From an archaeon (GTDB taxonomy: Archaea > Iainarchaeota > Iainarchaeia > Iainarchaeales > GCA-2688035): a stretch of 64,000 nt of DNA. Shown piece by piece: positions 23,434 through 43,130 of this stretch (its first letter is position 1; each line of letters starts with the position of its first letter). The notes under the pieces are model-generated. The model did no database searches and was not told the DNA's origin. It saw nothing but the letters and a program-made list of their open reading frames with translations. Location: assembly GCA_041645325.1 (NCBI GenBank), contig JBAZQI010000002.1, positions 8,850-72,849 of the forward strand, written 5' to 3'. The translations under genes were made by a program, and so were the position numbers.

Positions 23434-23700
23434 AAGCCTTTCTTTCTAAAAGCCTTTTAATAAAAGGCTTGCGAAAAACGATGGCGAAAAATGCTTCGCG
23501 AGAAAGAAAGCCTCCTGGCAAAACCATTGGTTTTGAAAGGCCCAGCAAAGCTGCAGCTTTGCCGGGTGGGAAAGAAAGCTTTTTGCTTCGCAAAAAGAAG
23601 CCTTTTTTTCTGCTGAAAAACCTTAGAGATGCTTTAGCATCTCTTACGGTTTCTGAACCTTATAGGTTCAGAAAAAGCCTTGGGAAAAAATGCGCTAATT
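23434..23700. repeat. Intergenic repeat cluster: hairpins plus second copy of the ~70-bp double-hairpin module and the AAAAGCCTTGGGAAAA motif
   Basis: 23617-23690 (AAAAACCTTAGAGATGCTTTAGCATCTCTTACGGTTTCTGAACCTTATAGGTTCAGAAAAAGCCTTGGGAAAA) is about 95% identical to 10693-10768. Additional hairpins include AGCCTTTTAATAAAAGGCT and CTTTTTGCTTCGCAAAAAG. Confidence 0.8.
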
Positions 23701-26877: not shown

Positions 26878-28563
26878 ATGAAAAAAGAATTTTTGCTTGT
26901 TTCTTTGCTTGTTGCGGCGCTTGCATTAAGCGGGTGCATTCAGCAGCCGGTTTGCGGAAACGGAGCATGCGAAGCAGGCGAGAATCAACAAAACTGCATG
27001 GAGGATTGCAAACTGACTGATGCAAATTGTTCTGATGGAACTACAGATGGAAGTTGTTCAATAACAAATGGCTTGCTTTGCAATAATGGAAAGCTTGAAA
27101 TGAACTGTGAAAAGTGCGTTTGCACTCCATTAATCGCTTGTTCTGGAGGCAATTGTGGAAAAAGAAATGTTGCAGAAGCAAACTATAATTGCACTTTTTG
27201 CAATGGTTTTTGCTTTGCAACGGATTCCCGGCTAAAGTCAATGTGTGAAAATAGTGTCTTTTATGAATGGAATCCTGAAAATGGCGAAGGAAAATCTTGT
27301 TTGACAGACCAAGATTGCACTTTGAGAGATTATCCACGGTGTGTGAAAAATGTTTGTTTACAGTCACTTCTGCATGAATATCCAACAAAAATCGCAGTAT
27401 CTTACCCGCGTTATGTTCAACAAAACAAACCGTTTTCATTTAAAGTAGATGTGGAAAATACCACTACGACACAGTTAACGTTCAGGCTATTTGATGTTTT
27501 TACCAGCTACTACAATCAGCAGGACAAAAAAATTGGATTTGATGAATACAAGGAAATAGCGCCAAAAAGCAAAGCTAGTTTTGAGATAACAAGCCCTGGA
27601 TTAGATGAAGTTTCAGCAGCATCAACGGTTTTCTTTAGATATAACATGCAACAGGACCGCCAGATATACGGCTCTTTTGGCTGGGAGTCTTTTGAGCATG
27701 GCCCAATAATTGTTGGGACTTGCCCTGAATCAGAAACAGAAATCTGTGGCGATTTGAAATATTGCCCAAAAGACAGGTTGGGCATCTGCTCAAATGGCAT
27801 ATTTTACCCTGTTGAACCAGGAACAGCCTGCAGCACCAATTCCGATTGCGAAAGCGGGCTTTCTGTTTGCCTGAACCATTCGTGCAGAGCAACTAACACA
27901 CAATATGGGTTAAATCCCTACATTAAAAATGAAGTGGGGATATTGGGAATTTTTATTTACAATGATAATGCTAAATTCGAAATCGAAAAAAAAACTAAGA
28001 ATGCCGATTTGAAATGGCTAACTGATAGCGCTAACGCGTGGGTTAAATCAGAAAGGGCATATTGGAATGCAACAAACGATTTTGATTTAGAGTTCACGGC
28101 AATAGAAAAAGAATGCAAGTTAGATAAAAAGCAATACCTTGAATTGTTTAAGTCTTGTGAATCTGGTGAAACAAGGAATTGCACTGAAAAAGAACTTGCT
28201 GCTTGTGGCATAGAACAAAAATTTGATGTAATAGCAATGCACGAATTTTTTGAAGAGGGATTATTGGACCAAGAAATAACTGATGAATTAATCAGGATAG
28301 GTTATCCTGGCTCTGCAGGATTAAATGAGGGAAACATCGTTAGATTTAGCTATAATACTGGCGATGAAGGAAAGACAAATTCTGTGCTGATTCACGAAAC
28401 TTTACACTCATTTGGAGAACAGGACCTGTATATAACAAACAAACAATATAATTCATTGTATCAAGAAAGAAACTGCAATCTGTATAATGCAATCTGGTCT
28501 GCCTTTGACAATAATCCGCACCTTTGCGAATTAGAAGCGAAATTAATCGGATGGAAGCAATAA
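26878..28563 (+). CDS. Secreted lipoprotein Cys-rich/putative zinc metallopeptidase (HETLH...DLY variant), paralogue 3
   Basis: LALSGCIQQPVCGNGACEAGENQQNCMEDC with a different Cys-rich middle section and C-terminal SVLIHETLHSFGEQDLY. AT-rich. Confidence 0.5.
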   Translation: MKKEFLLVSLLVAALALSGCIQQPVCGNGACEAGENQQNCMEDCKLTDANCSDGTTDGSCSITNGLLCNNGKLEMNCEKCVCTPLIACSGGNCGKRNVAEANYNCTFCNGFCFATDSRLKSMCENSVFYEWNPENGEGKSCLTDQDCTLRDYPRCVKNVCLQSLLHEYPTKIAVSYPRYVQQNKPFSFKVDVENTTTTQLTFRLFDVFTSYYNQQDKKIGFDEYKEIAPKSKASFEITSPGLDEVSAASTVFFRYNMQQDRQIYGSFGWESFEHGPIIVGTCPESETEICGDLKYCPKDRLGICSNGIFYPVEPGTACSTNSDCESGLSVCLNHSCRATNTQYGLNPYIKNEVGILGIFIYNDNAKFEIEKKTKNADLKWLTDSANAWVKSERAYWNATNDFDLEFTAIEKECKLDKKQYLELFKSCESGETRNCTEKELAACGIEQKFDVIAMHEFFEEGLLDQEITDELIRIGYPGSAGLNEGNIVRFSYNTGDEGKTNSVLIHETLHSFGEQDLYITNKQYNSLYQERNCNLYNAIWSAFDNNPHLCELEAKLIGWKQ

Positions 28564-28686: not shown

Positions 28687-29271
28687 ATGAACAAGTATTT
28701 CCTGATTTTTTTATTCTGCCTTTTGGTTTTTGCAAGCGGCTGCATCCAGTCGCAGCAGCCCGTGGGGCAGAACCGCATTGAAAAATACGGCTTCAGCCTC
28801 GCGCCGCCGCAAAGCGCTGTGTGGTTTGACTGGAAAAACATTCCTTTCGGCGAAACGCTTTTCCAGGCAATGACCGAAGACATGGAGGGCGAGCCGATGC
28901 TGATTCTCCTGAAGCCGGAGGCAGGCGACGGAAACGGCATGAGCGTCATTGCAGTAATGCTTGCCGACAACAATAGCGGCTACAATGACGTGAGCCAGAT
29001 TCCGCAGGAAATGCTTCAGGCCGGTGGCGGCATCACAGGTTTTGGTTCCATTCAGGCAAGCCAGGCAAATAGAATAGGCAGCCTAAACTGGATTTTGATG
29101 GAAGTTGATCCCACTGATGAAAACAAAGCGCCCTTCATATCAGACATTGCAATAACAATCTGCGGAAAAAAGGTTGCGGCCCTGATTCTTATGAACGGCC
29201 TGCAGGGCCTTGAAGAAAACCGCGCCTACTTTGCAAAGCTTGCAGAATCAGGGCAGTGCAATTCTCCGTAA
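28687..29271 (+). CDS. Secreted lipoprotein, hypothetical
   Basis: MNKYFLIFLFCLLVFASGCIQSQQP is the same SGCIQ lipobox context as the three peptidase paralogues. Confidence 0.45.
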   Translation: MNKYFLIFLFCLLVFASGCIQSQQPVGQNRIEKYGFSLAPPQSAVWFDWKNIPFGETLFQAMTEDMEGEPMLILLKPEAGDGNGMSVIAVMLADNNSGYNDVSQIPQEMLQAGGGITGFGSIQASQANRIGSLNWILMEVDPTDENKAPFISDIAITICGKKVAALILMNGLQGLEENRAYFAKLAESGQCNSP

Positions 29272-29329
29272 TTCACCGGAAGCCCGCTTTAAATTTCCTT
29301 TAAATGCCTTTTCCCAAAGGGCATTATTT

Positions 29330-31447
29330 ATGGACGCGGAAAAGCAGGCGCTTGAATTAAGCGGCATTGAATCCTTCAACCCGATGCAGGTTGCCGCGCT
29401 TAAAAAAAACTGGCGCGGCAAAAGCCTTGTGGTTTCAGCCCCGACGGCTTCCGGAAAAACCCTTCTTGCGGAAATAGCTTCCATTGATTCTATTGCCAAC
29501 AGGCAGCAAAAGGTGATTTACACAGGGCCTTTGAGGGCGCTTGCCTCGGAACACTTTTCTGAATTCAAAAAAAAGTACTCAAAGGAATTGAAAATAAGGG
29601 CCGCCCTGAGCACAGGCGACCTTGACGGCAGCAGCTCCCATCTTCAGAATTACGACATCATTTTTTCAACTTTTGAAAAACTGGACAGCCTTCAGAGGCA
29701 TAAGGCGAACTGGCTTGGGGCAGTAGGGCTTCTTGTCATTGATGAGGTTCATTCCCTCGGAAGTGACAGGGGCCCGACAATAGAGGTTGCGGTTACAAAG
29801 CTCAGAATGCTCAATCCTGGGCTGAGGGTGCTTGCCCTGAGCGCAACCATTCCGAATGCGCACGAGCTTTCGGACTGGCTTGAGGCAGAGCTTATTGAAA
29901 GCGATTACAGGCCTGTGCCGCTTGAAGAAGGCATTTTTTTCAACGGCAAGGTGCATTATGCTTCAGGGCAAAGCGAATCCTTTGGCCTGAAAGAGCCGAT
30001 AAAGGCGCTTGTAAAGGACACGGTTTTTGCCAAGGGAAAGCAGGCGCTTGTTTTTGCAAACACGAGGAAAAATGCGGAAAGCATTGCCATAAAGCTAGCC
30101 CCTTTTGTTGAAAAGGCATTGCGGGAAAAGGAGAAAAATGAACTGAAAAAGGAAAGCGATTCATTGCTTGGCATTCTTGAGCAGCCCACCGAGCAGTGCA
30201 GAAAGCTTTCCTCGCTTGTTGCAAGCGGCGTTGCGTTCCACCATGCAGGCCTTCTTTCGGGCCAGCGCACCCTGATTGAGAACGCGTTCCGCTCGAACAA
30301 AATCAAGGTTATTGCCGCAACGCCAACACTTGCGGCCGGGGTAAATTTGCCGAGCCATACTGTGATAATTCCTTCGCTTTACCGCTACACCGCAGGGGGA
30401 ATGGCAAGAATTCCTGTTTCGGAATTCAAGCAGCAAATTGGAAGGGCAGGCAGGCCAAAATATGACAAGGAGGGCAGGGGAATTGTTGTGGCAAGGTGCG
30501 AGGCTGAAAAGGACGAGCTTTTTGAGGAATACATTTGCGGCAAGGTGGAGCCTGTTGAGTCAAGGCTTGGCGTTGAGCCTGTGCTGAGAATGCATGTGCT
30601 TGCCCTGGTGGCAAGCGGCTTTGTTTTTGATTTGGCAAGCATGGGCGATTTTTTCAAAAAAACGCTGTATGCAAAGCAATTCAGCAACATGCAGGCGCTG
30701 TTTGAAAAGCTGCAATCTGTTTTGCAGCAGCTTGTAGAAATGGGCTTTATTGAAGCAAATGAAAAGCGCATTTCGGCAACAGTTTTGGGGCAAAGGGTGA
30801 GCGAGCTTTACCTTGACCCTCAAAGCGCCTTTGAAATGATAAGCGCGATGAAGGCAAGCGCAAAATTCACGCCTTTTTCATACCTTTTCATTTTGTGCAA
30901 CTGCTCGGAAATGATGCCCTGGCTTTCGGTTCCAAAGGCAAAGGAGCCGGAATTGTGGGAGCAGTTGCAGCTCTCCAAGCCGCAGATGCCGATTGACCTT
31001 GATAGGGAAATGTACTTTGACCTGAATCTTTTGAAAAAATTCAACACGGCTGAAATGCTTGAAAAATGGATTGACGAATCCTTTGAACAATCCATAATGG
31101 AAGACTTCAAGACCCAGCCAGGCATTCTCCACTCAAAGCTAAGCATCTGCGACTGGCTGTGCTATTCTTCCCTTGAAATTGCAAAGCTTTTGTCTTTGGA
31201 AAATCACTTCTTGCCATTGTCAAGGCTGAGGAAAAGGCTCAAGTATGGCGTCAGGGAAGAGCTTTTGCCGCTTACCAACGTAAGGCATATCGGAAGGGTG
31301 AGGGCAAGAAAACTGTGGAGAAGCAACATAAGAAGCGTTGCAGAGCTCAAAAATGCTGATTTGAAGGACCTTGGCAGGATTCTCGGGCCTGCTGTTGCTG
31401 AAAAGGTCAAAAGCGCATTGGGGCAAAGACTTATTCCATTAAACTGA
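29330..31447 (+). CDS. hel308: Hel308/Hjm-type Ski2-like DNA helicase
   Basis: Walker A APTASGKT, DEAH-like VIDEVH, motif VI QQIGRAGRP, and winged-helix plus C-terminal HhH regions. Start set at MDAEKQALELSGIESFNPMQ. Confidence 0.85.
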   Translation: MDAEKQALELSGIESFNPMQVAALKKNWRGKSLVVSAPTASGKTLLAEIASIDSIANRQQKVIYTGPLRALASEHFSEFKKKYSKELKIRAALSTGDLDGSSSHLQNYDIIFSTFEKLDSLQRHKANWLGAVGLLVIDEVHSLGSDRGPTIEVAVTKLRMLNPGLRVLALSATIPNAHELSDWLEAELIESDYRPVPLEEGIFFNGKVHYASGQSESFGLKEPIKALVKDTVFAKGKQALVFANTRKNAESIAIKLAPFVEKALREKEKNELKKESDSLLGILEQPTEQCRKLSSLVASGVAFHHAGLLSGQRTLIENAFRSNKIKVIAATPTLAAGVNLPSHTVIIPSLYRYTAGGMARIPVSEFKQQIGRAGRPKYDKEGRGIVVARCEAEKDELFEEYICGKVEPVESRLGVEPVLRMHVLALVASGFVFDLASMGDFFKKTLYAKQFSNMQALFEKLQSVLQQLVEMGFIEANEKRISATVLGQRVSELYLDPQSAFEMISAMKASAKFTPFSYLFILCNCSEMMPWLSVPKAKEPELWEQLQLSKPQMPIDLDREMYFDLNLLKKFNTAEMLEKWIDESFEQSIMEDFKTQPGILHSKLSICDWLCYSSLEIAKLLSLENHFLPLSRLRKRLKYGVREELLPLTNVRHIGRVRARKLWRSNIRSVAELKNADLKDLGRILGPAVAEKVKSALGQRLIPLN

Positions 31448-31467: not shown

Positions 31468-31728
31468 TTTTCCCAAGGCTTTTTCTGAAGGAAAAAGGCT
31501 TAGCAACGCATCAGCGTTGCTGTTTTCCCAAGGCTTTTTCCGAAGGAAAAAGGCTTAGCAACGCATCAGCGTTGCTGTTTTCCCAAGGCTTTTTTCAACA
31601 GAAAAAAGGCTTTGCGCGAAGCGCATTTTTCCCAAGGCTTTTTCTGAAGGAAAAAGGCTTAGCAACGCATCAGCGTTGCTGTTTTCCCAAGGCTTTTTGC
31701 CAACAGGCAAAAAGGCTTCTGCACAAAA
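31468..31728. repeat. Tandem array of five ~46-57-bp units, each TTTTCCCAAGG + A/U hairpin + GC hairpin (AGCAACGCATCAGCGTTGCT) + GTTTT
   Basis: Units start at about 31468, 31523, 31578, 31626 and 31683. Units 1, 2 and 4 are near-identical; 3 and 5 have variant hairpins (TGCGCGAAGCGCA; CTTTTTGCCAACAGGCAAAAAG). Contains the reverse complement of the dispersed AAAAGCCTTGGGAAAA motif. Confidence 0.85.
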
Positions 31729-31808
31729 TTTATTAATAATGAAAGTATTCTATTAGTGTGCATATTCTATTAGTGTGCAAACCACAGCGTCAGGGAGCGT
31801 TTTTTTGA

Positions 31809-34800
31809 ATGGATAACCCTTTGAACAGCATAGTTGAGTCTTTCAAGAAAGGCTACTATTTCCTTGAAGACCGCTACTATATGCTTTTGGACAAGGTAAA
31901 CGGGCATGTTCCAATCTACAAGGCAATTGACCCTGTGGACCGTGTGTTTCCCTCCTTTGTGCTGCTGATTGCCGTACTGGCCTGCCTTGCAATTCTCCTG
32001 ACTTTTACGCTCTTGCCGCAGGTTTCACTGTCTGCAACACTGCGCGTGCTTGACGAAAACAACAACCCGCTGGAGGGCGCGCACATCTCGGTTTCATTCA
32101 ACGACGAGTCAATAGGCCTTGACACCGACGATTTCGGCGAAGCAAAGCTTGCGTTGCCGCAAAGCGGGGTTGAAGCCGCAATACTCGTGTCAAAGGACGG
32201 TTTTGACAGGCTAAGCCAGACCATAACACTGAAAACAAACGACCTTGTTGACCTTCTTCTCAGCAGGACAAAAGCCTCCTTTCAAGCCACCAAATCCACA
32301 ATATACGTTGTCGACTCAAGAACAAACAGGCTGATTAAGGGACAGGTGCACCTTGAATTCACCTGCTCAACCGGCACCCCAGCCCCTGCGCCTCTATCTG
32401 GCGCAACAGGCGAATTCAAGGACATGGCGGTTTCAGGTGAATGCGGCACGCTTCTTGCAAAGGCCATGGCTGAAGGATACGAGCCAAAGGCAAGCGTTGC
32501 CATAACAAGGAATCCAACCTACCTAAAGCTTGACCCTCTTGACCCTGTTGAAACAACAACCGGAATAAACGTGATTGTAAGGGACCATGCCGGAAACGCG
32601 GTGCAGGGCGCAATAGTCAAGGCCTTCGGCGGCGGCAACGTGCTGGTGCAGCAGCTTTCAACCGACACAAGCGGCACAGTCTCAATCCAGGGCATTGAAC
32701 CCGGCATTTACTCGGTTACCGCAAGCCATTCCGACGGAAGGTATGCCGAAAAAACCGGCGTAGAAGCCCTTATAGGCACGCCCGCAACTGTCACGCTTTC
32801 CTTCGCACAGCCGGCCACAGGCGACGGAGAGAAAATATCCATGCACTTCACCGATGCGGTAACAAACGCAAGCATCCCGAACGCAACAGTCCTGATTTAC
32901 GCAAACAACCTGCTCTTTGATTCAAAAACAAGTGATTCCTCAGGCCTAATAGAAAAGGCGGTTGACGGCAACAACTCGTCATTCATTGCCGTGGCATCAC
33001 ACGACAATTATGTAACAAGAATAATCACAAACGTGGCGGTAATGGACGCATCCAGCAAAACCCCGCAGGCAATAAAGCTCACGCCACTCGCATCCGACGG
33101 CTCAAACAGCGGCAAGGTAAGCATCTTTGTTTCCGACTATGAAACAAAAAAGCCGGTTGAGGGCGCACAGGTATTCCTCTACAGCGCGGACTATCCCGAA
33201 ATAATACTCGATTATCCCTACGCGCTCACAAACGCGGACGGCAACATGCTTATTTCAAGGCTGCCTGAAGGCTCTTACTTTGTAAAGGTAAAAAAGTCCA
33301 ATACCGAGGGAACAAGCGAAACAGGCAAACTTGTAGCTGGTGCAACCCTGGGCTTTTCCATTATGCTTATTACAACTGAAGGCAAGGTCAAGGCTGAGGT
33401 TGTTGACAAAAAAACAGGCAGTCCGATACAGGGCGCTGAAATAACCTTTACTGACTACGCCACTGATTCCGTGCTCCAAAGCGGCTTTTCTGACGCGCAG
33501 GGAAAGCTTGAATCACAGCCCTTCAAGTCAAACAAGACCGTTTACGTGAAAGCCGTAGCCGCAGGATACTTCTCTGCAACAAGCATGCCGCTTCCCATAG
33601 TGTCAAAAAGCGCGCAAAGCGTCAGGCTGGAACTTGACTCAAAAAGCGATATAAGCCTTGACCAGAATATGGCAATCAAATTCGAGGGCTTTTACGCCGA
33701 CAAGGCCCTGAAGCAGAAGGCAACAACCCTCGAATCAGGCGAAACAGGCCAGCTCTACTATTATATCAAATTCACGGTGCTTACCGCAAAAGACGCAAAC
33801 TACTCGAATATTATGCACCACATAAGGCTCGATTCAGAGGAAAAAGGCAAAAGCCCGGAAAAACTGCCTACCCCGACAGGATACACCGCAAGGCTTCTTA
33901 ACTACGCCGCAAGCTCGCCCTACTCATCGACAATCTTCAGCGCATGCTACAATCCTGAAAATGTATTCTCAAGCCCGGAGGCCTGCATAACAGACCTTGT
34001 CGCAAAACAGGCAAACACGCTTTGGGCAACAGCCTCAAGGCAAACAGCTTACACCCTTGTGCTTAAAATGGAAATCGAGCAAAACCTTGAGGACGGCACG
34101 GAAATAGAGCTGCGCTACCAGGGCAAAGCCATAATGAACAATTCCGAATTCATGACACAGCCATTCCTGCAGACCTTCAGAATAGGCGAGCCAATCTGCT
34201 CGCCACCCGACTGCCCTGCAGCCATAATGCGCTTCTGGCTCCAGGATTCAAACGGCAACAAGGCAATCCTCCAAAGCTTTTCGGGCGAAAGCGATTACAC
34301 GACCGGGCAGGAAACCGAGCTTGCAAGCTATTCCAATTACAAGCTGTTCTACGAGGTCCGCAACACAAGCGGTGTGGAACTGACAGCAACACTGAAGCTT
34401 GAAAACGCTGACCCCCCCAATGTGGTTTCAATACAGGGCGAAAACATTCAAACCGCATTTTCAGGGCTGCAAATTGCCGCCCACACTGTTGCCTCACAGG
34501 GCTCGCCTGTGCAGCTGAAAACAGGTAGTGAAGCCGCATTCACTAAAATCAAGGCCTCTTTTACTTCAACACAGGGCAAGGCCATGGAACAATTCATCCC
34601 GTTCACGGTAACAGCCGCAAAAGAGCTCACACTGGCGGTTTCGCCCTCGGTGCTAATACCAAACGATGGCAGCCAGATTTTAAGCGGCTATGTTAAGTCA
34701 AGTGATGGCACCCCGGTTCAGGGCGCCTCAATAAGCATCTTCCTGCCTGGCAACACGCTGTTCGAATCGCTTGTTTCCGGCGAAACAGGGGCTTTCTCCT

Positions 34801-36317
34801 CAACAAGGAACTTCAGGCTGCAGCCCAACGAAAAGGTCAGCTTGGTGGCAACAGCGCCGGGCTACAAGAAGACAACTGTTGAGGTGCCGGTAAATTTCGG
34901 CGACTACTTTGACCCAAGGTACAACTGCATAGAGGTTCCCTCACTTGGAGAAGACGTCCGCACATTCAAGGACACAAGGCCGGGCGGCAAGGGCCTGTTT
35001 GAAGTTGTCAACAACTGCGAAACGCCTGTTGAAATAATGTTCAACAGCAAGCTCAAAGTTGAGCCGAAGCAAATGCAGATTCCGGCCGGTGCAAGCGCGC
35101 AGGCAACATTTACCGCAGACAATCCCGAGGGAGGCGAACAGGTTTACCTCGGGCAATACCCGATTTACGTCAAGGCAAAAATGCAGGGCGACGTGCGCTT
35201 TGTGAACGCAGTGAAAGTGCTTGTGATTATTTCAGACCCTGTGGGAAGCTGCTTTGCAATTGACAAGACAAGCTTTAATCTTCTGGACAGCAACATGGAC
35301 AGCGGCGAAATAACAAATGATTGCGCTGTCCAGTTCAACGACGCATGGGCCCCTGAGCTTGCCCTTGACTCCTTCAAGGCGATAATTAGAAGGGATGATG
35401 TGCAGATTCCGGACATGTTCCCCTTCGAATGGGGCGTGAGGGCAGAACTGAGCCTTTCAACGCCTGTAAGGGTTGAATTTGAGGAAAAAAGGGAAAACAC
35501 ATGGAACGATTTTTACATTCCCACAGGGGCTGATACAGGCCCTGATCATACCATAAACAAAAGCATAACGGTTAACGTGGGAGAAAGCATGGAAGACATA
35601 ACCGCCCTGAAATTTGATTCGATAATTATCCCTATTTTGCCAATAGACTTGTCCGGTGTTATTGACTACGGTTCCATTGCATATGTAGCAAGCGCGAACA
35701 TTTACGTTGACGGCATTCCGGTGCCGGTGCCTGAATGCGGCTTAAGTGGCTGCACCTGGGAAGAAAGCGGCAAGACAAATGATGCGGCAAAATGCCATTA
35801 CATCGCAGCATCGTGCTATTACAACTCGTTTGAAGTCCAGCTTCAACGTGACTCAATAGGCTCAATCACGTTCCCAATATACAACTCAGAAAACAGGGCT
35901 TTCCTGTTTTTCTCGCTAAACGGCACGCTCATTGAAACATCATACGGCTTTGACGTAAACCACACTCAATTTGAGCTTGAGTTTGGGCCCCCGCCCACAA
36001 ATCTTTTCCGCTCAACAATAGTTCCTGTCAGGGGCCTGGGCTTTGCGCTTGGAAAAATTGACCTCTCGCTGGCAAACAAGCTTGGCGAAGGGCTCTATTC
36101 GGTTGACGATGCAAACATCACAGCATACAGCAACAGCCCAGAAGTTGAAGTATGGCTTGTTGACAACGTCATATATGGAAAATATGTGGGCAATGATGCA
36201 GCAGATGATGACCAAGGGGCTACGCCTTTTACGATAAAGGACCTTTATCTCGACACAACCCAGTATAATTTAATTTACGTTGACGATTATGTAAACGAAC
36301 TGAGGCCTGCCAAATGA
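31809..36317 (+). CDS. Giant (1502 aa) type-II membrane-anchored surface protein with multiple carboxypeptidase-regulatory-like/Ig-like beta-sandwich repeats
   Basis: 40-aa cytoplasmic N-terminus then TM FVLLIAVLACLAILLTFTLL. At least six ~80-aa repeats of the CarboxypepD_reg type (for example GINVIVRDHAGNAVQGAIVKAF...TDTSGTVSIQGIEPGIYSVTAS). The C-terminal 700 aa carry no recognised motif. Confidence 0.6.
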   Translation: MDNPLNSIVESFKKGYYFLEDRYYMLLDKVNGHVPIYKAIDPVDRVFPSFVLLIAVLACLAILLTFTLLPQVSLSATLRVLDENNNPLEGAHISVSFNDESIGLDTDDFGEAKLALPQSGVEAAILVSKDGFDRLSQTITLKTNDLVDLLLSRTKASFQATKSTIYVVDSRTNRLIKGQVHLEFTCSTGTPAPAPLSGATGEFKDMAVSGECGTLLAKAMAEGYEPKASVAITRNPTYLKLDPLDPVETTTGINVIVRDHAGNAVQGAIVKAFGGGNVLVQQLSTDTSGTVSIQGIEPGIYSVTASHSDGRYAEKTGVEALIGTPATVTLSFAQPATGDGEKISMHFTDAVTNASIPNATVLIYANNLLFDSKTSDSSGLIEKAVDGNNSSFIAVASHDNYVTRIITNVAVMDASSKTPQAIKLTPLASDGSNSGKVSIFVSDYETKKPVEGAQVFLYSADYPEIILDYPYALTNADGNMLISRLPEGSYFVKVKKSNTEGTSETGKLVAGATLGFSIMLITTEGKVKAEVVDKKTGSPIQGAEITFTDYATDSVLQSGFSDAQGKLESQPFKSNKTVYVKAVAAGYFSATSMPLPIVSKSAQSVRLELDSKSDISLDQNMAIKFEGFYADKALKQKATTLESGETGQLYYYIKFTVLTAKDANYSNIMHHIRLDSEEKGKSPEKLPTPTGYTARLLNYAASSPYSSTIFSACYNPENVFSSPEACITDLVAKQANTLWATASRQTAYTLVLKMEIEQNLEDGTEIELRYQGKAIMNNSEFMTQPFLQTFRIGEPICSPPDCPAAIMRFWLQDSNGNKAILQSFSGESDYTTGQETELASYSNYKLFYEVRNTSGVELTATLKLENADPPNVVSIQGENIQTAFSGLQIAAHTVASQGSPVQLKTGSEAAFTKIKASFTSTQGKAMEQFIPFTVTAAKELTLAVSPSVLIPNDGSQILSGYVKSSDGTPVQGASISIFLPGNTLFESLVSGETGAFSSTRNFRLQPNEKVSLVATAPGYKKTTVEVPVNFGDYFDPRYNCIEVPSLGEDVRTFKDTRPGGKGLFEVVNNCETPVEIMFNSKLKVEPKQMQIPAGASAQATFTADNPEGGEQVYLGQYPIYVKAKMQGDVRFVNAVKVLVIISDPVGSCFAIDKTSFNLLDSNMDSGEITNDCAVQFNDAWAPELALDSFKAIIRRDDVQIPDMFPFEWGVRAELSLSTPVRVEFEEKRENTWNDFYIPTGADTGPDHTINKSITVNVGESMEDITALKFDSIIIPILPIDLSGVIDYGSIAYVASANIYVDGIPVPVPECGLSGCTWEESGKTNDAAKCHYIAASCYYNSFEVQLQRDSIGSITFPIYNSENRAFLFFSLNGTLIETSYGFDVNHTQFELEFGPPPTNLFRSTIVPVRGLGFALGKIDLSLANKLGEGLYSVDDANITAYSNSPEVEVWLVDNVIYGKYVGNDAADDDQGATPFTIKDLYLDTTQYNLIYVDDYVNELRPAK

Positions 36318-38077
36318 GCAAAAAAAATGCAATCGCTTTCATTGCGCTGCTCCTGCTTTTCGCAGGCTATGCAAGTGCTGCACAGCCCGAGCTGTTCTAC
36401 AAAAGCAACCTGTTTGTAAAGCTCAACGAGGAAACGTTTTCGCCGGGAGAAACGCTTGAAGCCACAATAGAACTGCTCAATATGGAGGATTTCCCGATAG
36501 CGGAAGCATATGTTGTTGTCGAACTTGTGCAAGGCGATGATTACTATTACCCCAGCCAGATGCAGGATACGGACAACATTTTCTTTGAGGAAAAAATAAC
36601 TGGCCTGAACATCGCGCCCCACGAAAAGGTTTCCGAAACCTTTTCATACAATCTGCCCTCTGGCCTCAAACCCGGCAATTACAGGATAGATGTCTACGCC
36701 AAGACAAACAAGACCTCGCTTGTCGGAGCGCCCCACATATTCGCTTCGCCAAACTCCGTGCGCTTCGCAGTATCAGGCGTCGGCAATGAGTTCCCTGAAG
36801 CCAAATTCATAAGGACAAAGACAATGTTCCATGAGTTTCTTGGGCCCGTGGGCCCGGGAATAAAACCCGGCGAAGAAATTGAAAACGGGGTTTTTGTGCA
36901 AAATATTTCCGGCAAATCTCTCAGCAATGTTATACTGTTTGTGGGATTATGCGAGTGGGATGACACAAGCTGCGCTTCCTATGAATCGACAGCAACTGAA
37001 AAAATCGCGCTGCTTGCGCCTGGCGAAGAAAAAGCAGTAAGCGTAAAGCTCAAAGCTCCGCAAATGCCGGACGCGTACGCAATAAGGCTTGAGTTGCGGG
37101 ACAGTAGCGGCAGGCTGCTCTCCCTTTACAGGAACAGGAGCATTGTCTACGGTGGCACTGCCAAAATACACCAGCTCAACATAAGCGACTACTCTTTTGA
37201 GCAAGGTTCCCAGGGCGAAATAAGCATGTTTATAGGCCCAAGCCCGGACCATTACAATTTCCCCCCTTTTGAAGATTTCACAGTCAAGGCCTGGATTGAA
37301 AATGCAAGGGACAACAACAGGGTAATTTTCAGCGATGAACGGCAGGTTGCGTCAATAGCCAGCCCGGACTTCCTTACATTTGCCTTTCCCTTTACCGCCG
37401 AAAAAGCGCTTGACCTCTTCAAGGTATGCGGTTCGGTATCAAAAGGCGGGGAAGAGCACGAGCATTACTGCTACCTTGTGGACGCAAGCAAGTTCCCGAA
37501 AAAGGAGCTGGCAAGTGAAATAGCCATTGAATGGAACTATGACTTCTCAAATAGAACACTTAATCTTTTATTCTCAAACGAGGACACCAAGCTGAAGGAA
37601 ATGAACGCCGCATTCATGCTTCTGCGCCCTGAAACAAGCGAGCTCGTCGCAACCAAGGCCCTCAAAGGTGAAAGCCCGGTGGCTGAATCCATAGCTGTGG
37701 AGCCTGAAAACTTCGTGCTTTTGCTGAATAATTTTTCCACGCGAAAACAGCAGAAAGTGGAAATAAATATCGTGGGCCGGGAAGCGGCATTCACCCTGAA
37801 GTCATGCCCTGAACTCGGCGGAAGCATGTGTTCGGAAGGGCAATTATGCGACAATCCTGCGGCAAGCAGCGAAGGGAAGTGGTGCTGCCTGACACAATGC
37901 AGGGGCCGGGCAAGCACAAGCCAACAGTCCTTGCCCTGGGGCACGGTTTACTCCCTGCTTTTGTGGGTTGCCGCAATCGTTGTCATACTTGTAATCGCAT
38001 ACAATGCCTATGTCAGATTCGGCGGCAGAGGCAATGAGGAATTTGGAGGTGAGAACATTGAAAACGACCTGCGGTAA
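36314..38077 (+). CDS. Secreted surface protein with CARDB-like domains and C-terminal TM anchor (587 aa)
   Basis: ATGA overlap with the upstream gene stop. Signal peptide IAFIALLLLFAGYASAA. CARDB-like PGNYRIDVYAKT and APGEEKAVSVKLKAPQMPDAYAIRLEL. C-terminal VYSLLLWVAAIVVILVIAYNAYV plus basic/acidic tail. Confidence 0.55.
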   Translation: MSKKNAIAFIALLLLFAGYASAAQPELFYKSNLFVKLNEETFSPGETLEATIELLNMEDFPIAEAYVVVELVQGDDYYYPSQMQDTDNIFFEEKITGLNIAPHEKVSETFSYNLPSGLKPGNYRIDVYAKTNKTSLVGAPHIFASPNSVRFAVSGVGNEFPEAKFIRTKTMFHEFLGPVGPGIKPGEEIENGVFVQNISGKSLSNVILFVGLCEWDDTSCASYESTATEKIALLAPGEEKAVSVKLKAPQMPDAYAIRLELRDSSGRLLSLYRNRSIVYGGTAKIHQLNISDYSFEQGSQGEISMFIGPSPDHYNFPPFEDFTVKAWIENARDNNRVIFSDERQVASIASPDFLTFAFPFTAEKALDLFKVCGSVSKGGEEHEHYCYLVDASKFPKKELASEIAIEWNYDFSNRTLNLLFSNEDTKLKEMNAAFMLLRPETSELVATKALKGESPVAESIAVEPENFVLLLNNFSTRKQQKVEINIVGREAAFTLKSCPELGGSMCSEGQLCDNPAASSEGKWCCLTQCRGRASTSQQSLPWGTVYSLLLWVAAIVVILVIAYNAYVRFGGRGNEEFGGENIENDLR

Positions 38078-40460
38078 GGTTACGGCCTTTTTCTTTGTCC
38101 TGTTCCTGGTATGCCTTTCACAGGTTTCCCTTGCTTCGCCCGGTGATTTTATTTCCCTGGACCCAAGCACCTGTGGCACATGGGGCGGGGGCAAGCACTG
38201 CTGGCATGAACAAAACGTACAGGGCATCACTAATGTTGATTTTATAATATCCTTTGACAAGCCCGTCGCTTTCGGGGATGGGAACACATATGTAGTGCCA
38301 ATTATGACCCTGATGAGCATAACGAATTTTGTCTCTTATATAAATGTGTGCGTTGACGGCGCTTCAGCCCCGGATGCAGTTCTCCCGGCAGATATCCTTG
38401 TTGATGGCGAAAAGGTCGGTGACAATTACATTAAAACCAATGTCGAATCCTGCCACGGCGGCACAGTATGGAAGGGCAATCAGGGCCCAGTCAAGTACCT
38501 TTTTTCCAAGCAGGGTCTGCACCACGTGCAGATTGTCGTTGCAAGCCAAAACAACGGAACATGCGGCGTAGTCTCACGCGAATTTGACGTTATTGTCGTG
38601 CATCCAGTCCTTTCAGTCAACGGAAGCGCCTCCAGGATAATTTCCTTCGGCAGAAATGAGGCAGAAAAGGCATTCAACATAATCTGGACCATTAAAAACC
38701 TGGGCGGTTTCGCAAGCACTCTGGAAACAGTAACGGCAACAGGCTGTGGCGAAAACCTTGAATGCAATTTCATTGCCTTCGGGCCATTGGACCTAAATCC
38801 GAACGAAAGCATCATTGTAGTGGAAGAGGTCAAGGCAAAAAGACCCGCAGCCATAACCGCGCCTGTGGCAGTGGAAGAACTCGGTATTGAGCTGGGTTAC
38901 ATTGACATATTCGGGTTAAGCCGCCTTAATAAGCAGTCATCACTTCCCGTGAATGTTGCGCTTTTATGGAATGAAGAGCAGCGCTTTCACGTGGAACTGG
39001 TCGGCGGTCAGCAGGATTACTGCATAGGCCAGGATGGCAAGCTCGGCGGCACAGGCCCGGGCGAAGTGCCCCATGTGCTGTTCAATTGGGCTTGGTCAAG
39101 CATAGGCATAAACGAGCCAGGCGCATACAGCTGCGACAAGAAAAGCCCAAATGATCTTGAATACATTTACTGTGACCCCACGCAATTCAGCATAGAGCTG
39201 CTCAAAAGGCTAAACATGATAAAGACCGCGGCTGAAGAGGGAAAATTCGACAAGGCCGCAGAGCTATCGCATTTCCAGGCCTACCTAATCGGCGACAGCA
39301 TAAACCCCGACTTCAGAAAAGACTTTGACTATTACTACAAGACAACGGAATTCTTCGGCGCAGACTGGTACAACAGCCCCAATTCACCCTGGGACCTGTA
39401 CTTTACCGACACCCAGCGCATGGTTTTCAGCCCAGAAAAAATAGATTCCGGCCTTTACGACGTGGAACTTGACTTCGATTTCGAATCCGACAAATACAAG
39501 TTCTTCTGGTCGGAAAACGAGCTTGCCGCCAAAATAACCGTCAGGCTTACCAAAATAAGTAACCCCCTTTCCCAGAACCCGCTTTACTACCTTCCCTTCA
39601 ACGGCGAAGTCGGCCTGCAGCGCATTGACGAAGACGGCCTTGCAAGGCGCAACGGCTACGGCCTCGGCTTCTCAGGGGACGAGCTAAGGCTTGACGAATT
39701 CAGGCTCGGCTCCTTCATCCTGACAAAAGGCGAAGGCGAAAAAATTGTGCAAACAGCATACATGCAGGACTTCTACAAGTCAAACATCTCGGAAAAAGGC
39801 CTTATACTTTCCATAGCAAAGGACGGCTCATCAATGGTGTTTTCGCCCTCATACGCAACGCCCGTAATAATGGAACTCAAGGCAAACGAGGCAACAGCAA
39901 GGGCAGACGGCTACTACTCCGTGCACAACGGCGCAAAAACAATGGTTTCGCCGTCAGGCTACATGAATCTCTGGACAGGCTTTGCCTCAACGCCAATGAC
40001 CTGCGCAAACTTTGACGAAAGCTCGCTGTACTACCAAAGGAACGACGGCACGGCATCCGAAGTCCCGGGCTTGGCAACCACGCCGGAAAACCCGGCCTAC
40101 GGCTTCACCTGGAAAGACGTCCCAGCACAAAACCTCCAGCAGGGCAAACTGTACCTTGAAACAGTCTTCTACACGCCGATAGACTCAGGAATGACCTTGA
40201 GCGGCGAAAGCACTACTGTCCTGATGAGCCCAAGTGGCACAGGGCAGGCAGTCTCGCTTAACTACAAGGGCATGAGCCCAATAATTGAAAGCGTGTTCGG
40301 CCTTGTAAACGACAAGTATGTCTGCGTCAGCCTCAGCGACAGTGCGCTTGAATTCTGGTGGAACCCACAGCGCGTCACCAAGGACCTTGACGGCATAAAA
40401 GCCGCACAAATAAGCGAAGCCTGGATGTCAGGCTGCTCGGTGGAAGGCGAGGCAAAGTAG
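38034..40460 (+). CDS. Large secreted protein (about 800 aa), hypothetical; third gene of overlapping surface-protein operon
   Basis: Overlaps the upstream gene's 3' end. Signal peptide TAFFFVLFLVCLSQVSLASP. A GTG at 38049, directly preceded by GGAGG, is an alternative start. No domain recognised. Confidence 0.55.
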   Translation: MRNLEVRTLKTTCGKVTAFFFVLFLVCLSQVSLASPGDFISLDPSTCGTWGGGKHCWHEQNVQGITNVDFIISFDKPVAFGDGNTYVVPIMTLMSITNFVSYINVCVDGASAPDAVLPADILVDGEKVGDNYIKTNVESCHGGTVWKGNQGPVKYLFSKQGLHHVQIVVASQNNGTCGVVSREFDVIVVHPVLSVNGSASRIISFGRNEAEKAFNIIWTIKNLGGFASTLETVTATGCGENLECNFIAFGPLDLNPNESIIVVEEVKAKRPAAITAPVAVEELGIELGYIDIFGLSRLNKQSSLPVNVALLWNEEQRFHVELVGGQQDYCIGQDGKLGGTGPGEVPHVLFNWAWSSIGINEPGAYSCDKKSPNDLEYIYCDPTQFSIELLKRLNMIKTAAEEGKFDKAAELSHFQAYLIGDSINPDFRKDFDYYYKTTEFFGADWYNSPNSPWDLYFTDTQRMVFSPEKIDSGLYDVELDFDFESDKYKFFWSENELAAKITVRLTKISNPLSQNPLYYLPFNGEVGLQRIDEDGLARRNGYGLGFSGDELRLDEFRLGSFILTKGEGEKIVQTAYMQDFYKSNISEKGLILSIAKDGSSMVFSPSYATPVIMELKANEATARADGYYSVHNGAKTMVSPSGYMNLWTGFASTPMTCANFDESSLYYQRNDGTASEVPGLATTPENPAYGFTWKDVPAQNLQQGKLYLETVFYTPIDSGMTLSGESTTVLMSPSGTGQAVSLNYKGMSPIIESVFGLVNDKYVCVSLSDSALEFWWNPQRVTKDLDGIKAAQISEAWMSGCSVEGEAK

Positions 40461-40468: not shown

Positions 40469-41248
40469 TCAAAGGAACAGCACAATCGCGGCAATGGCAA
40501 TTATCAGGGCAAGGCTGATCCAGAAAGCCGGCTTTCCCAACAGGCGCCATTTTCTTCCAGAATCAGCGCTTACGGCCTGCGTTTTTTCCACGTTTCCCTT
40601 TTTTCCCGCAAGCTTTTCTCCGCCGATTGCCGCAATCTCCCTGCTGTACCTCAGCCAGGCGCCAGGTTCCTTCAATTCCTCAAGGGCCTCTTTTGTAAGC
40701 TCAACAAAGCCCTTTTCCTTTTCGGGAACATTTTCCTTGCCCAGCATTTCCCCGGTTACCGCGCTTATTTCAAATTTGTGCGTTTCGCCGGCAACCGTGG
40801 CAAACGCAAGCCACACAGGGTAATAGATTTCCCGAAAGCTGGAAAGCACGACGTTTTTCCTGTCAGTGCCGAGAAAAGAGGCTGTCTTCAGCAGTGCAAT
40901 CTTTTCAGCCTCGCTTTTTGAAAAAACCGCCTTTTTTATCACAAGGGCATATTTGTCCGGAAGCTCTTTCAAAAGCGCTTCTTCTTCAGGCATTGACTCT
41001 GCAAGCTCCTTGTTCAATTCGGCTGTTTCGCCGTTCAGGGCAAGCAGGCCACGCCTGGTTTCCCCATTTGGCTTTCCTTTTTCCCCAAAGACAGCATCGT
41101 AATAGAAAAGAAAAAAGGGGGTGAGGACAAGCTTTATGTCCCCTCTCTCAAAATTGTGCCGGTTTTTTTTAAGCAGGGCTTTCTCCACAATCTCGGCGGC
41201 CTTTTCAAGCGTGAAAGAGATTGGGAATACCGGGTTTCCTACAAACAT
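40469..41248 (-). CDS. C-terminally TM-anchored hypothetical protein
   Basis: 259 aa; soluble domain then WISLALIIAIAAIVLFL at the C-terminus (tail-anchored topology). Confidence 0.45.
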   Translation of the reverse strand: MFVGNPVFPISFTLEKAAEIVEKALLKKNRHNFERGDIKLVLTPFFLFYYDAVFGEKGKPNGETRRGLLALNGETAELNKELAESMPEEEALLKELPDKYALVIKKAVFSKSEAEKIALLKTASFLGTDRKNVVLSSFREIYYPVWLAFATVAGETHKFEISAVTGEMLGKENVPEKEKGFVELTKEALEELKEPGAWLRYSREIAAIGGEKLAGKKGNVEKTQAVSADSGRKWRLLGKPAFWISLALIIAIAAIVLFL

Positions 41249-41259: not shown

Positions 41260-41619
41260 TTATTGCAGCTCTTTCTTCTTAATAATCTTTACCTTGCTTG
41301 GCGTCACAAGAATGTGCTCGTGGCTGATTCTTGCTATATCCCCGTTGATTCCCTCAATGCCGCCTTTTATCTTGGTCACAATTTCCTTGAGCTTTATCGC
41401 GTTTCTCTTGCTCAGGTCCCCTATGTTCACAAGGACAATATTGCCTGCTTTTGCCTCGTTTACAACATTCTGCGCATCGGCTTCGGTTGTAAGCGTAATG
41501 GGCTTCACGAAGGCATCGGCATCCTCGTAAATGGTTTCATCCTCGGCATCAAGGTTGTTCAAAAAGCCCTCAATGTCTATTCCTTCTTCTCTCTTCAAAA
41601 CCTTTTCTAAAAAAGCCAT
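41260..41619 (-). CDS. sepF: Cell division protein SepF-like (DUF552)
   Basis: MAFLEKVLKREEGIDIEGFLN...AKAGNIVLVNIGDL...GDIARISHEHILVTP matches archaeal SepF (IVL.N...L......R..DFL.G..YAL.G...RI....FL.TP). Confidence 0.6.
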   Translation of the reverse strand: MAFLEKVLKREEGIDIEGFLNNLDAEDETIYEDADAFVKPITLTTEADAQNVVNEAKAGNIVLVNIGDLSKRNAIKLKEIVTKIKGGIEGINGDIARISHEHILVTPSKVKIIKKKELQ

Positions 41620-41906
41620 TATTTTTTGCACCCCCAAATTCAATTATAGTATTTCTCCCACAATTGTTTTTTAAAACACTTCGCTTGCATCCCCTACATA
41701 ACAAGCCGCCCCAGCCGGCTGATCTGGGTGCCATAAGCTCGCTTTTGCTCGCTATGGCCCAGGTAAGGAAACCGAATTCTTTGCCAAACCCCAGGTTTGC
41801 TTTCTCAATAAAGCATGCTTTTTAATTGCCCGGCCATAATAGTTATGCTCCCAACTTTTTTCAGGAATTTTTACCCGACACAAACACAGCCTAGGGTGGG
41901 TTTTTT

Positions 41907-43130
41907 TTGATTGAGCAAAGCTTGCATGAAAACATTTTCCAGAAACAGCTTGAAAAAAACACGGTTTTCACGGACAGAAACACAATAACCCCGCACTACA
42001 CGCCAAGCAATCTCCCATTCAGGGAAAAGCAGATAGAGGAAATCTCGCAATTGCTTTCGGTTGCATTGCACGGCGCAAAGCCGGACAATCTTTTCATCTA
42101 CGGCAAGGTCGGCACAGGCAAGACAGTAACCGTAAACCATGTGCTTTTGCAGTTAAACGATTTCATAGCCCACAATGCCAACAAAAGCGTTGACTTTGCC
42201 TACGTCAACTGCAGGAACCATAACACAAAATACAAGGTTTTGCTCAAGGCGCTTTCAAAATTCTTTCCGGAAGAAGACTTCATAGGATACAGCTCTGCCT
42301 TTGTCTACGAAAAAATGCTCAAGCACGCGGAATCCGGAAAGCAGGTGATAATCGTGCTTGATGAAATAGACAAGGTCAAGGACCTTGACGAGCTAATCTA
42401 CGCGCTCACAAGGTCAAACGACGAGCTGCAAAAAGGCGGCATTGCGGTGATAGGAATAAGCAACAACCTTTTCTTCAAGGACAAGCTTGACGTGAGGACA
42501 AAAAGCACGCTGCTGCAGAGGGAAATGGTTTTTCCGCCATACAATGCGGAAGAGCTCAGGGCAATCCTGCAGGCGCGCATTAAAACCGCGTTCAAGCCAA
42601 GTGCGGTTGAGGATAGCGCCATTAACCTTGCCGCCGCAATTGCGGCACAGGAATCAGGGGACGCTAGGGCAGCGGTAATGCTCATGCTCAGGGCAGGCGA
42701 AGAGGCTGACCGCTCCCTGCTAAGGGTTGTGAAAGAAGAACATGTAAGGCTTGCAAGGACGCGCGTTGAAGAAGAGGTTACCTTGAACATGGTGGAAACC
42801 CTGCCAAAGCAGCAGCAACTGGTGCTCTACGCCTTGTCCTTGATGACTGCGCAGGGCAAGGGCTATGGAAAGCTCATGGGCGGCAAGGAAGAAGGCGTCT
42901 TTTTTTCAGGCGACGCCTACAGGGAATACGAGCGCATTGCCGCCTCAATGCAGGAACAGGTTGTCTCAAGCCGATGGTTCAGGGAATACGTAAACGAGCT
43001 TGAAACCTACGGCCTGATTTTGACAACAGCTTCAGGCAAGGGCATAAGAGGCACAACAACGCTGATAAAGCTCGGCTTTGACGCAAAAAAACTCAAGCAG
43101 GCGCTGGAAAAAGAACTGATGTGCGCATAG
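41907..43130 (+). CDS. cdc6: Orc1/Cdc6 replication initiator
   Basis: Walker A IYGKVGTGKT, Walker B IIVLDEID, sensor motifs, and a C-terminal winged helix. 407 aa. Confidence 0.9.
   Translation: MIEQSLHENIFQKQLEKNTVFTDRNTITPHYTPSNLPFREKQIEEISQLLSVALHGAKPDNLFIYGKVGTGKTVTVNHVLLQLNDFIAHNANKSVDFAYVNCRNHNTKYKVLLKALSKFFPEEDFIGYSSAFVYEKMLKHAESGKQVIIVLDEIDKVKDLDELIYALTRSNDELQKGGIAVIGISNNLFFKDKLDVRTKSTLLQREMVFPPYNAEELRAILQARIKTAFKPSAVEDSAINLAAAIAAQESGDARAAVMLMLRAGEEADRSLLRVVKEEHVRLARTRVEEEVTLNMVETLPKQQQLVLYALSLMTAQGKGYGKLMGGKEEGVFFSGDAYREYERIAASMQEQVVSSRWFREYVNELETYGLILTTASGKGIRGTTTLIKLGFDAKKLKQALEKELMCA

Follow-up and report, generated by a model that had tools for sequence, protein, structure and literature searches.

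The stretch of DNA analysed here, a window of 64 kb from an uncultivated archaeon of the Iainarchaeota (formerly Diapherotrites; DPANN), contains three adjacent genes, g1, g2 and g3, each an intact open reading frame (ORF) on the + strand (Table 1). An earlier, sequence-only reading of this DNA had reported three long overlapping ORFs, and all of them are present at the coordinates it gave. They extend far beyond chance, and orthologues of the same lengths exist elsewhere (1464–1509, 571–599 and 787–815 aa). The g1/g2 junction is an ATGA overlap at 36314–36317. For g3, the sequence-only reading had chosen a GTG at 38049; this codon and the GGAGG preceding it are present in the sequence, but the ATG at 38034 is the likelier start, since the identical database protein has 808 aa and an orthologue with 60 % identity shares this ATG and its sequence context (GGCGGCAGAGGC[A/G]ATG). 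An exact look-up of the 818-aa form returned no entry. With the start at 38034, g2 and g3 overlap by 44 nt. As far as the overlaps themselves indicate, translation of the three genes may be coupled.

All three products are predicted to be extracytoplasmic, with topology called throughout by a simple hydropathy scan. They are acidic (isoelectric points 4.7–4.9) and contain 12 (g1), six (g2) and four (g3) N-glycosylation sequons, equivalent to 0.5–1.0 per 100 residues, against 0–0.26 per 100 residues in neighbouring cytoplasmic proteins. A motif scan of g1, g2 and g3 detected no thioester motif, HExxH, LPxTG or PGF. The triplet proteins had no match in PHROGs, and Rfam and tRNA scans of the 64-kb window gave no matches.

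Table 1. Features of the triplet locus and its surroundings, in window coordinates (TM, transmembrane segment; TRF, Tandem Repeats Finder; BRE, transcription factor B recognition element)
Feature	Position	Strand	Description or basis
Hel308-type helicase	29210–31447		
Tandem hairpin array	31468–31718	+	Period 55 × ~4.6 copies (TRF)
Other hairpin copies	10747–10764, 15940–15957, 23671–23688, 62905–62963 (copies at 62905 and 62946)	-	Single or double
Putative archaeal promoter	31720–31779	+	Archaeal promoter consensus
BRE/TATA TGCACAAAATTTATTAA	31720–31736	+	Within putative promoter
Initiator-like GTATTCTATTA	31745–31755	+	Inside the 17-bp direct repeat
Perfect 17-bp direct repeat TATTCTATTAGTGTGCA × 2	31746–31779		TRF; window-specific
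g1	31809–36317	+	1502 aa
g1 residues 1–48	31809–31952	+	Conserved N-terminal tail, predicted cytoplasmic
g1 TM/signal-anchor, residues ~49–72	31953–32024	+	Hydropathy; single TM of g1
g1 residues 73–612	32025–33644	+	Six consecutive β-sandwich-sized units, ~90 aa each
g1 residues 613–957	33645–34679	+	No family match; conserved Cys pairs 713/726 and 797/802
g1 residues ~958–1030	34680–34898	+	Extra CarboxypepD_reg domain, Pfam E 3e-9 on isolated segment
g1 residues 1031–1502	34899–36317	+	Distal region, no family match
g2	36314–38077	+	587 aa
g2 Cys-rich juxtamembrane stalk, residues 498–529	37805–37900	+	Alignment
g2 TM, residues ~545–567	37946–38014	+	Hydropathy
g3	38034–40460	+	808 aa; longest ORF 38004–40460 (818 aa)
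g3 residues 1–312	38034–38969	+	Signal peptide 1–34, then Ig-like β-sandwich domains ~56–310
g3 residues ~313–808	38970–40460	+	Conserved ~480-aa module
259-aa tail-anchored protein	40469–41248	-	Hydropathy; no family match
SepF	41260–41643	-	Pfam 5e-15
Orc1/Cdc6	41907–43130		
PolD large subunit	43142–46633	-	
PolD small subunit	46614–48125	-	

Conservation of the three-gene unit

A word-indexed search returned full-length relatives of g3 in only 11 clusters among 5.8 billion, and wherever enough DNA flanking such a relative was readable, g1, g2 and g3 stood in the order of the window. A scan of species-representative genomes with g2 gave seven loci, including one in a further assembly, L017, labelled Candidatus Iainarchaeum. 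The triplet was found in the same order in seven other archaeal assemblies, at 29–62 % identity to that of the window: L001 (1487/585/809 aa, 58–62 %), L008 (1495/587/795 aa, 50–58 %), L003 (1488/583/787 aa, 46–57 %), L012 (1509/599/815 aa, 29–42 %), L009 (1464/582/789 aa, 30–36 %), L004/5/6 (1475/571/787 aa, 29–36 %) and L017. Junctions overlapped or were ≤5 nt apart in all six loci read, with purine-rich Shine–Dalgarno-like strings before most internal starts. The triplet occupies two unrelated genomic contexts. One runs from a helicase gene to sepF, cdc6 and PolD (window, L001 and L012, with L003 retaining the helicase), and the other from PPDK to aspartate kinase (L004, with L009 retaining aspartate kinase). 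The sequence-only reading had treated the three genes as one unit and proposed a synteny check in relatives; the order and the tight junctions are indeed kept, and in both contexts.

The flanking genes are of archaeal type (Table 1). The triplet is much less conserved than its housekeeping neighbours, with identities of 58–62 % versus 79–84 % in L001 and 29–42 % versus 55–60 % in L012. Surface proteins usually diverge faster than housekeeping proteins. Conservation of motifs and cysteines indicates that g1, g2 and g3 are functional genes and not pseudogenes. Relatives with informative names were assigned to Candidatus Diapherotrites or Candidatus Iainarchaeum (phylum Iainarchaeota, kingdom Nanobdellati, DPANN). 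A few discordant labels of metagenome-assembled genomes in the g2 scan (Chloroflexi, Thaumarchaeota and Nanohalarchaeota) were taken to be binning labels. The suggestion that the locus is typical of host-attached small archaea found no support here; the named relatives are labelled Diapherotrites or Iainarchaeum.

Predicted architecture of the three products

The g1 protein has a single TM behind a 48-aa tail, in agreement with the N-terminal membrane anchor proposed from the sequence. The tail carries the motif GY(F/Y)FLEDRYYxLLDKxNxxVPIYKxIDPxDxVxPSF, with 16 residues invariant in an alignment of six orthologues and two giant fused paralogues (see below), and it ranks among the most conserved 50-aa blocks in the conservation profile of g1. 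A profile search with the tail matched only 24 short database proteins, mostly encoded on contigs of <2 kb and thus probably pieces of larger proteins, and no PDB sequence was matched. For a segment predicted to face the cytoplasm, conservation this strong implies that it has a specific partner, for example an intracellular structure or a factor for targeting or export.

The six units of residues 73–612, read as a stalk, include four that match CarboxypepD_reg, a family with a transthyretin-like fold. Against this family (PF13620) Pfam scored g1 at 124.8 bits (cut-off 32.3) over five stretches. Segments 73–165, 245–340, 428–522, 518–612 and 940–1035 matched singly, and 245–340 and 940–1035 each exceeded the gathering cut-off unaided; two interleaved segments of equal length gave no match in this segment-by-segment scan. 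The g1 family profile had one weak match among PDB sequences, to NOMO2 (E 0.0014), and matches of g1 in NCBIfam were all sub-threshold. Beyond the stalk, residues 613–957 are mostly β in an AlphaFold2 (AF2) model of low to moderate confidence, and Foldseek returned only generic β-sandwich arrays for them. The extra CarboxypepD_reg domain at residues ~958–1030 is the best-modelled part of the AF2 model. The CarboxypepD_reg repeats recognized in the sequence-only reading are thus substantiated by five matching segments, but the 700-aa uncharacterized C-terminus that it described is broken by this additional domain.

In the distal region, ectodomain conservation peaks at residues ~1035–1200 (the NDAWAPELALDSFKAII block), which the giants share. 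Mapping with hidden Markov models (HMMs) found no match in giants for residues ~1200–1390; the last ~100 aa recur in several of them, 200–350 aa upstream of a g3-type module. Invariant distal cysteines are 1040/1070, 1148/1172, 1310/1315 and 1329/1336, and all 14 cysteines of the g1 ectodomain are invariant among orthologues.

The g2 protein comprises a signal peptide (residues 1–22), an ectodomain, a Cys-rich juxtamembrane stalk, a TM and a short cytoplasmic tail, and it keeps the highest orthologue identity of the three genes. It is specific to the triplet. Its ectodomain has the invariant motifs CEWDDT(S/A)C and GPSPDHY, and 10 of 10 cysteines are invariant among orthologues. The predicted C-terminal TM was found by hydropathy, but the CARDB-like character attributed to g2 was not, CARDB (PF07705) being undetected at E≤0.1. 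Pfam matches were sub-threshold and Ig-like only (Arrestin_C, 1.3e-4; N_BRCA1_IG; NPCBM_assoc; Big_14), and an Ig-like fold is plausible. The g2 profile matched none of all PDB chains at E≤10, NCBIfam gave no match, and hhalign detected no relationship of g2 to g1 or to g3 (probabilities <3 %). At the C-terminus, where archaeosortase substrates have a signature motif, a TM and a basic cluster at the very end, g2 has a proline-containing motif followed by its TM and basic residues. This motif varies among orthologues, and the window protein has a long tail; the orthologues of L004 and L009 stop directly after the basic cluster. This C-terminus resembles only loosely the PEF-CTERM layout of two other proteins of the window.

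By hydropathy g3 has an N-terminal signal peptide only, and thus no anchor of its own. Its C-terminal module of ~480 aa contains the motifs YCDPTQFSIELL, FxAYLIGD..DFRKDFDYYY, LPFNGEVG, GYGLGF, WTG and WWN together with conserved cysteines; YCDPTQF, AYLIGD, LPFNG and WWN are conserved among g3 orthologues. Neither Pfam nor NCBIfam returned a family for g3, as expected from its first description as a protein with a signal peptide and no recognizable domain. The g3 profile matched none of all PDB chains at E≤10, and the module, searched as a 16-member profile, matched no PDB sequence. Pfam analysis of 16 module-bearing proteins revealed no recurrent family.

Giant fused paralogues and other carriers of the module

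A profile search with g3 of 1.84 billion cluster representatives, run without a word index, returned 875 proteins at E≤1e-3, of which 499 reached E≤1e-30. The shared part corresponds to profile positions ~308–790. Profiles of g1, g2, g3 and the tail were mapped onto the best 150 of the 875, and approximately half of these 150 proved to be giants of 2000–3000 aa. Their layout is a g1-type tail, a TM, a region equivalent to g1 positions ~10–1200, a variable middle and a C-terminal g3 module, which forms the membrane-distal end of a g1-like stalk. The tail was found in most giants, and hydropathy indicated the N-terminal TM and no second one. Over positions ~308–790 the g3 profile matched the C-termini of giants at E 1e-80 to 1e-137. 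In L003 and L007, giants of 2227 aa and 2219 aa, respectively, are encoded directly after the triplet; in BLASTP the L003 giant matched g1 residues 1–1198 at E 1e-157 and g3 residues 314–791 at E 6e-81. By these sequence comparisons, g1 and g3 are split halves of one giant surface-protein family. The fusion of g1 and g3 in giants provides a gene-fusion argument that the two act together, and their presence in the window as separate genes with g2 between them marks the triplet as a split variant and not as a standard member of the giant family. Members of the giant family with names are labelled Candidatus Diapherotrites, and no description of the family was found in the literature.

Split and fused forms share 28–34 % identity, both within and between genomes. 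The L004 genome carries the triplet and at least two giants (P0072 and P0089) on one contig of 1.19 Mb. This level of identity and the coexistence of both forms in the same genomes indicate that the split arose long ago and has been stable.

The module also occurs without the g1 part, at either end of unrelated passengers. Such carriers include a signal peptide with the module, Peptidase_C1 and PEGA (P0085), the module with Peptidase_C25 (P0112), PKD with the module (P0010 and P0011) and Big_3 with the module (P0042). The module is N-terminal in some of them, upstream of a cysteine peptidase domain. The secreted papain-type (C1) and C25 peptidases and the PKD proteins that bear the module are without any TM. 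A viral origin of the module was considered and rejected, with no relatives on IMG/VR contigs and no PHROG match.

Several further observations concern the surroundings and the variants of the giants. Different genomes carry different members of this surface-protein family in the slot between helicase and cdc6/sepF/PolD, which is occupied by the triplet in the window, L001 and L012 and by a single giant of 2888 aa in L011 (8001–16667). The giant P0072 (2888 aa) lies in the helicase–cdc6 slot. In L010 (63–4023) a set of 230-, 478- (CHU_C-like) and 626-aa (PKD and module) proteins lies beside cdc6. After the giant in L003 (19183–22237) and L007 (9805–12887) there follow an archaeal prepilin-type peptidase (Peptidase_A24 and Arc_PepC), a small protein matching HxsD, a small ORF and a SPASM radical-SAM enzyme. 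The giants P0075, P0082 and P0086 have a DxSxS motif upstream of the module (e.g. VFVIDKSGSMNDEW), reminiscent of the metal-ion-dependent adhesion site of vWA domains; Pfam reported no VWA in these giants at E≤0.001, so that a suspected vWA domain was not confirmed.

Upstream region

The DNA between the helicase gene and g1 contains a tandem hairpin array and a putative promoter (Table 1). The array, which had been noted before the operon in the sequence-only reading, is confirmed by TRF and by a fold z-score of −5.7. It is composed of two alternating hairpins, CCAAGGCTTTTT..AAAAAGGCTT and AGCAACGC-ATCA-GCGTTGCT, followed by TTTT. It sits 3′ of the helicase stop codon, and each unit contains a GC-stem followed by T's. 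The window has 10 occurrences of the core hairpin motif, TTTTCCCAAGGCTTTTT, where 0.05 would be expected, and by our own reading the base of the stem is conserved among copies while the inner stems differ with pairing retained. At ~15905 and ~62885 the right arm of the hairpin abuts a TATA-like box (AAAAGGCTTTATAAAG and AAAAGGCTTTTATAGG), and the dispersed hairpin could represent either a mobile palindrome or a module that combines terminator and promoter. The array was absent upstream of g1 in all five other loci read. It is read, from its sequence and distribution, as a probable local expansion of a dispersed terminator-like or repetitive extragenic palindromic (REP)-like intergenic element, which may insulate the operon from read-through. 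Its interpretation as an element of the operon was not upheld, as the motif is dispersed in the window and the array is missing at the five other loci, four of which keep the TATA-box promoter motif in the same position.

In the window, L001, L003 and L008, g1 is preceded by a conserved TATA-box motif, TGCACAAAATTTATTAA, with a TATTCTATTA-like motif ~9 nt further on, and TTTATAAA variants occur upstream of g1 in L004 and L009. The perfect 17-bp repeat of the window duplicates the conserved initiator-like motif, of which orthologous loci hold one copy. The g2 and g3 junctions leave no intergenic space.

Proposed model and alternatives

The evidence points to a lineage-specific cell-envelope complex. 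On balance it is probable, with some reserve, that the locus is a single operon encoding three subunits of one such complex and that this complex is a split version of the giant surface proteins. The complex would be a heteromeric stalk-and-head assembly with a putative S-layer-like or adhesive function. In this model, g1 would be held by an N-terminal signal-anchor after its cytoplasmic tail and would project a long CarboxypepD_reg stalk ending in a disulfide-rich distal region. The secreted g3 would serve as a 'head', docking non-covalently onto distal g1 in place of the covalent link of the giants, and g2 would act as a second membrane anchor or adaptor of SlaB-like layout, with its C-terminal TM and Cys-rich stalk. 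The overlapping stop and start codons would hold the three products in fixed proportion. The occurrence of the module on TM-less C1 and C25 peptidases and PKD proteins is the basis for proposing it as a docking or self-assembly domain, which would place varied passengers in one outer layer. If the module is a docking domain, the system would be S-layer-like or a surface-display scaffold. We infer the physical association of g1, g2 and g3, docking by the module and a structural or adhesive function from gene and domain arrangement.

A number of results weigh against this proposal. No fold could be assigned to the module, so its docking or self-assembly role is drawn from architecture only, and the observations suit ligand binding equally. 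The quality of the AF2 models is mediocre (pLDDT, the predicted local distance difference test score, 64 and 57), with the most conserved motif region of the module (~512–576) modelled at very low confidence. The giants have no counterpart of g2, except for a Cys-rich juxtamembrane motif in P0077, which makes the role of g2 the weakest step. The pre-module region of the giants showed no relationship to the N-terminal Ig-like part of g3 (hhalign, <3 %), and the split is therefore not a simple cut. Finally, the alignment shows a conserved small residue (A/S/G) between the g1 TM and the first β-sandwich domain, so that the anchor might be cleaved by signal peptidase as an unusually long signal peptide, which would alter the anchoring scheme.

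The main rival is that the proteins form an adhesin, with the module as a ligand-binding head at the tip of a stalk, recognizing a host or partner cell, a mineral or a polymer. Fusions of the module to peptidases would then target enzymes to the ligand, as carbohydrate-binding modules (CBMs) do for glycosidases. The present data do not separate this explanation from an S-layer-like one, and it is a serious possibility, although we consider it unlikely. It accommodates the membrane-distal position of the module in N-anchored giants, its fusion to secreted peptidases without an anchor, the several diverged paralogues per genome with variable giant middles, and the greater divergence of the triplet than of its housekeeping neighbours; giant surface proteins of other DPANN archaea are, moreover, commonly proposed as attachment factors. 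However, the module gave no match to a lectin, a CBM or a known adhesin fold. Nothing in the family is better conserved than this module, although adhesins usually vary most at their ligand-binding tips, and a host-attached lifestyle of the lineage finds no support here. It is improbable that g1, g2 and g3 specify independent surface proteins sharing no more than a promoter, with the relation of g1 and g3 to the giants reflecting only common domain ancestry. The lack of relationship of g2 to g1 and g3 and the clustering of surface-protein genes elsewhere in the window would suit that explanation, but gene order and overlapping junctions persist over the whole range of identities, 62 % to 29 %, and despite a relocation. 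In addition, g3 lacks its own anchor, and hundreds of paralogues have the module in covalent linkage with a g1-type stalk.

Taken together, g1 and g3 resemble one giant gene, which raises the question of whether the triplet is a decaying giant broken by frameshifts or stops. This is very improbable given that the same three genes, with the same lengths, occur in seven other assemblies, that g3 carries a separate signal peptide, that g2 is complete with signal peptide and TM, and that motifs and cysteines are conserved, with 28–34 % identity to fused paralogues denoting an ancient split. Faint Pfam matches to bMG3, MG2 and MG4 and structural matches to alpha-2-macroglobulin would suggest a protease trap of the alpha-2-macroglobulin or complement kind, but the structural matches cover generic β-sandwich arrays (TM-scores 0.1–0.17), g1, g2 and g3 lack a C[GLA]EQ thioester motif, and no thioester-domain or A2M family is among the Pfam matches; we regard such a trap as highly unlikely too.

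The model of a split, three-subunit envelope complex can be extended to a more speculative proposal, in which the ~480-aa module is an undescribed self-assembling or lattice-forming domain of an Iainarchaeota S-layer, with a canopy held on stalks, inserted passengers and coupling through the tail. Taken as a whole, this combination is doubtful. If true, g1-type stalks would hold a canopy of modules at a distance from the membrane, the module would serve to insert proteases and other passengers, and the conserved cytoplasmic tail would couple the envelope to an intracellular partner, giving a new S-layer architecture for a whole DPANN phylum.

Neighbouring genes and other surface proteins of the window

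The gene for the 259-aa tail-anchored protein belongs to a sepF operon. It lies 12 nt downstream of sepF on the same strand, and the pair of sepF and a homologue of this gene is kept in L001, L010, L011 and L012. The C-terminally anchored protein that the sequence-only reading had seen on the opposite strand thus exists, but it travels with sepF and not with the triplet. It was rejected as a fourth component, being sepF-linked and showing no relationship to the gene that follows the triplet in L004. Possibly this protein is a membrane partner, specific to the lineage, of SepF, which anchors FtsZ. A search for origin-recognition-type repeats between sepF and cdc6 gave nothing convincing.

The window encodes many surface proteins between 7 and 29 kb. 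A cluster of secreted proteins with lipobox-type signal peptides (..SGC..) lies at 20461–22302, 24805–26667 and 26878–28563, and others at 7609–10632 and 28687–29271. Three paralogues of this cluster share an N-terminal SGC(I/V)QxxVCGNGxCExGE, and two of these have weak Peptidase_M64 matches. Two secreted proteins encoded on the + strand, at 24236–24757 and 16966–18912, have PEF-CTERM-like ends (...IPEF, TM and GKRK, and ...VPELG, TM and RGAKRLR). An archaeosortase-family gene (165 aa; 54024–54521, - strand; TIGR04178, 9.4e-15) lies beside the gene for CDP-archaeol synthase, and its product is closest to the ArtD, ArtE and pacearchaeosortase models.

Comparison with known systems

The sequence-only reading had held that the locus is not a defined, characterized system, and profile searches of Pfam, NCBIfam and PDB matched no characterized family. 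No sequence homology to a characterized surface protein was detected. Nothing was found in the literature on surface proteins of Iainarchaeota. A 2023 preprint on Nanobdella states that no S-layer protein of DPANN archaea has been determined experimentally, candidates only being available, and discusses candidate surface proteins in Nanobdella. The locus supplies a defined three-gene unit and an unannotated family (875 clusters) whose ~480-aa module is absent from Pfam and PDB. The natural pair of split and fused forms indicates which parts should touch, the conserved cytoplasmic tail is a potential handle for intracellular partners, and the whole amounts to a concrete, testable envelope model for an uncultivated phylum. 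No general concept is changed, because multi-subunit surface complexes built of β-sandwiches and held by TM anchors are well known in archaea.

The S-layer of Sulfolobales, composed of SlaA and SlaB, offers the closest parallel in layout; background on these proteins comes in part from the Nanobdella preprint. As in the triplet, adjacent genes encode a large (~1400-aa) β-sandwich-rich outer subunit and a smaller TM-anchored one, and the products are extracytoplasmic and acidic with N-glycosylation sequons. SlaB shares with g2 a signal peptide, Ig-like domains and a C-terminal TM, a likeness of architecture only. In contrast, the triplet has three genes, its large subunit g1 brings an N-terminal TM and a conserved cytoplasmic tail, and g2 showed no coiled-coil stalk. 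No S-layer protein was matched among PDB chains (g2 and g3, E≤10; g1, E≤1), with SlaA and SlaB chains assumed to be present.

In the CWB2 family of Clostridioides difficile, each genome encodes many paralogues with one conserved terminal module at either end and variable passengers, among them a papain-type cysteine protease, and it is through this module that every paralogue takes its place in one shared surface layer. The g3 module resembles this arrangement in its terminal position at either end and in passengers that include a papain-type protease. The CWB2 proteins, however, are bacterial and bind a cell-wall polymer, and there is no relationship of sequence or fold; the g3 module measures ~480 aa, and many of its carriers are additionally TM-anchored. 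Tetrabrachion of Staphylothermus marinus, a giant TM-anchored stalk with a distal canopy and a protease attached to the stalk, follows the same logic of stalk, distal layer and proteases, but it is anchored C-terminally, its stalk is a coiled coil and not a string of β-sandwiches, and no homology exists. NOMO, of the BOS complex, has a string of CarboxypepD_reg/transthyretin-like domains like the g1 stalk. It is, however, a eukaryotic protein of the endoplasmic reticulum lumen with a C-terminal TM, similar at the domain level only, with nothing that matches the g1 tail, the distal regions of g1 or the g3 module. Compared with the unnamed giants, which carry both parts on one polypeptide, the triplet adds to g3 a signal peptide and an Ig-like N-terminus, and to the set as a whole the g2 protein.

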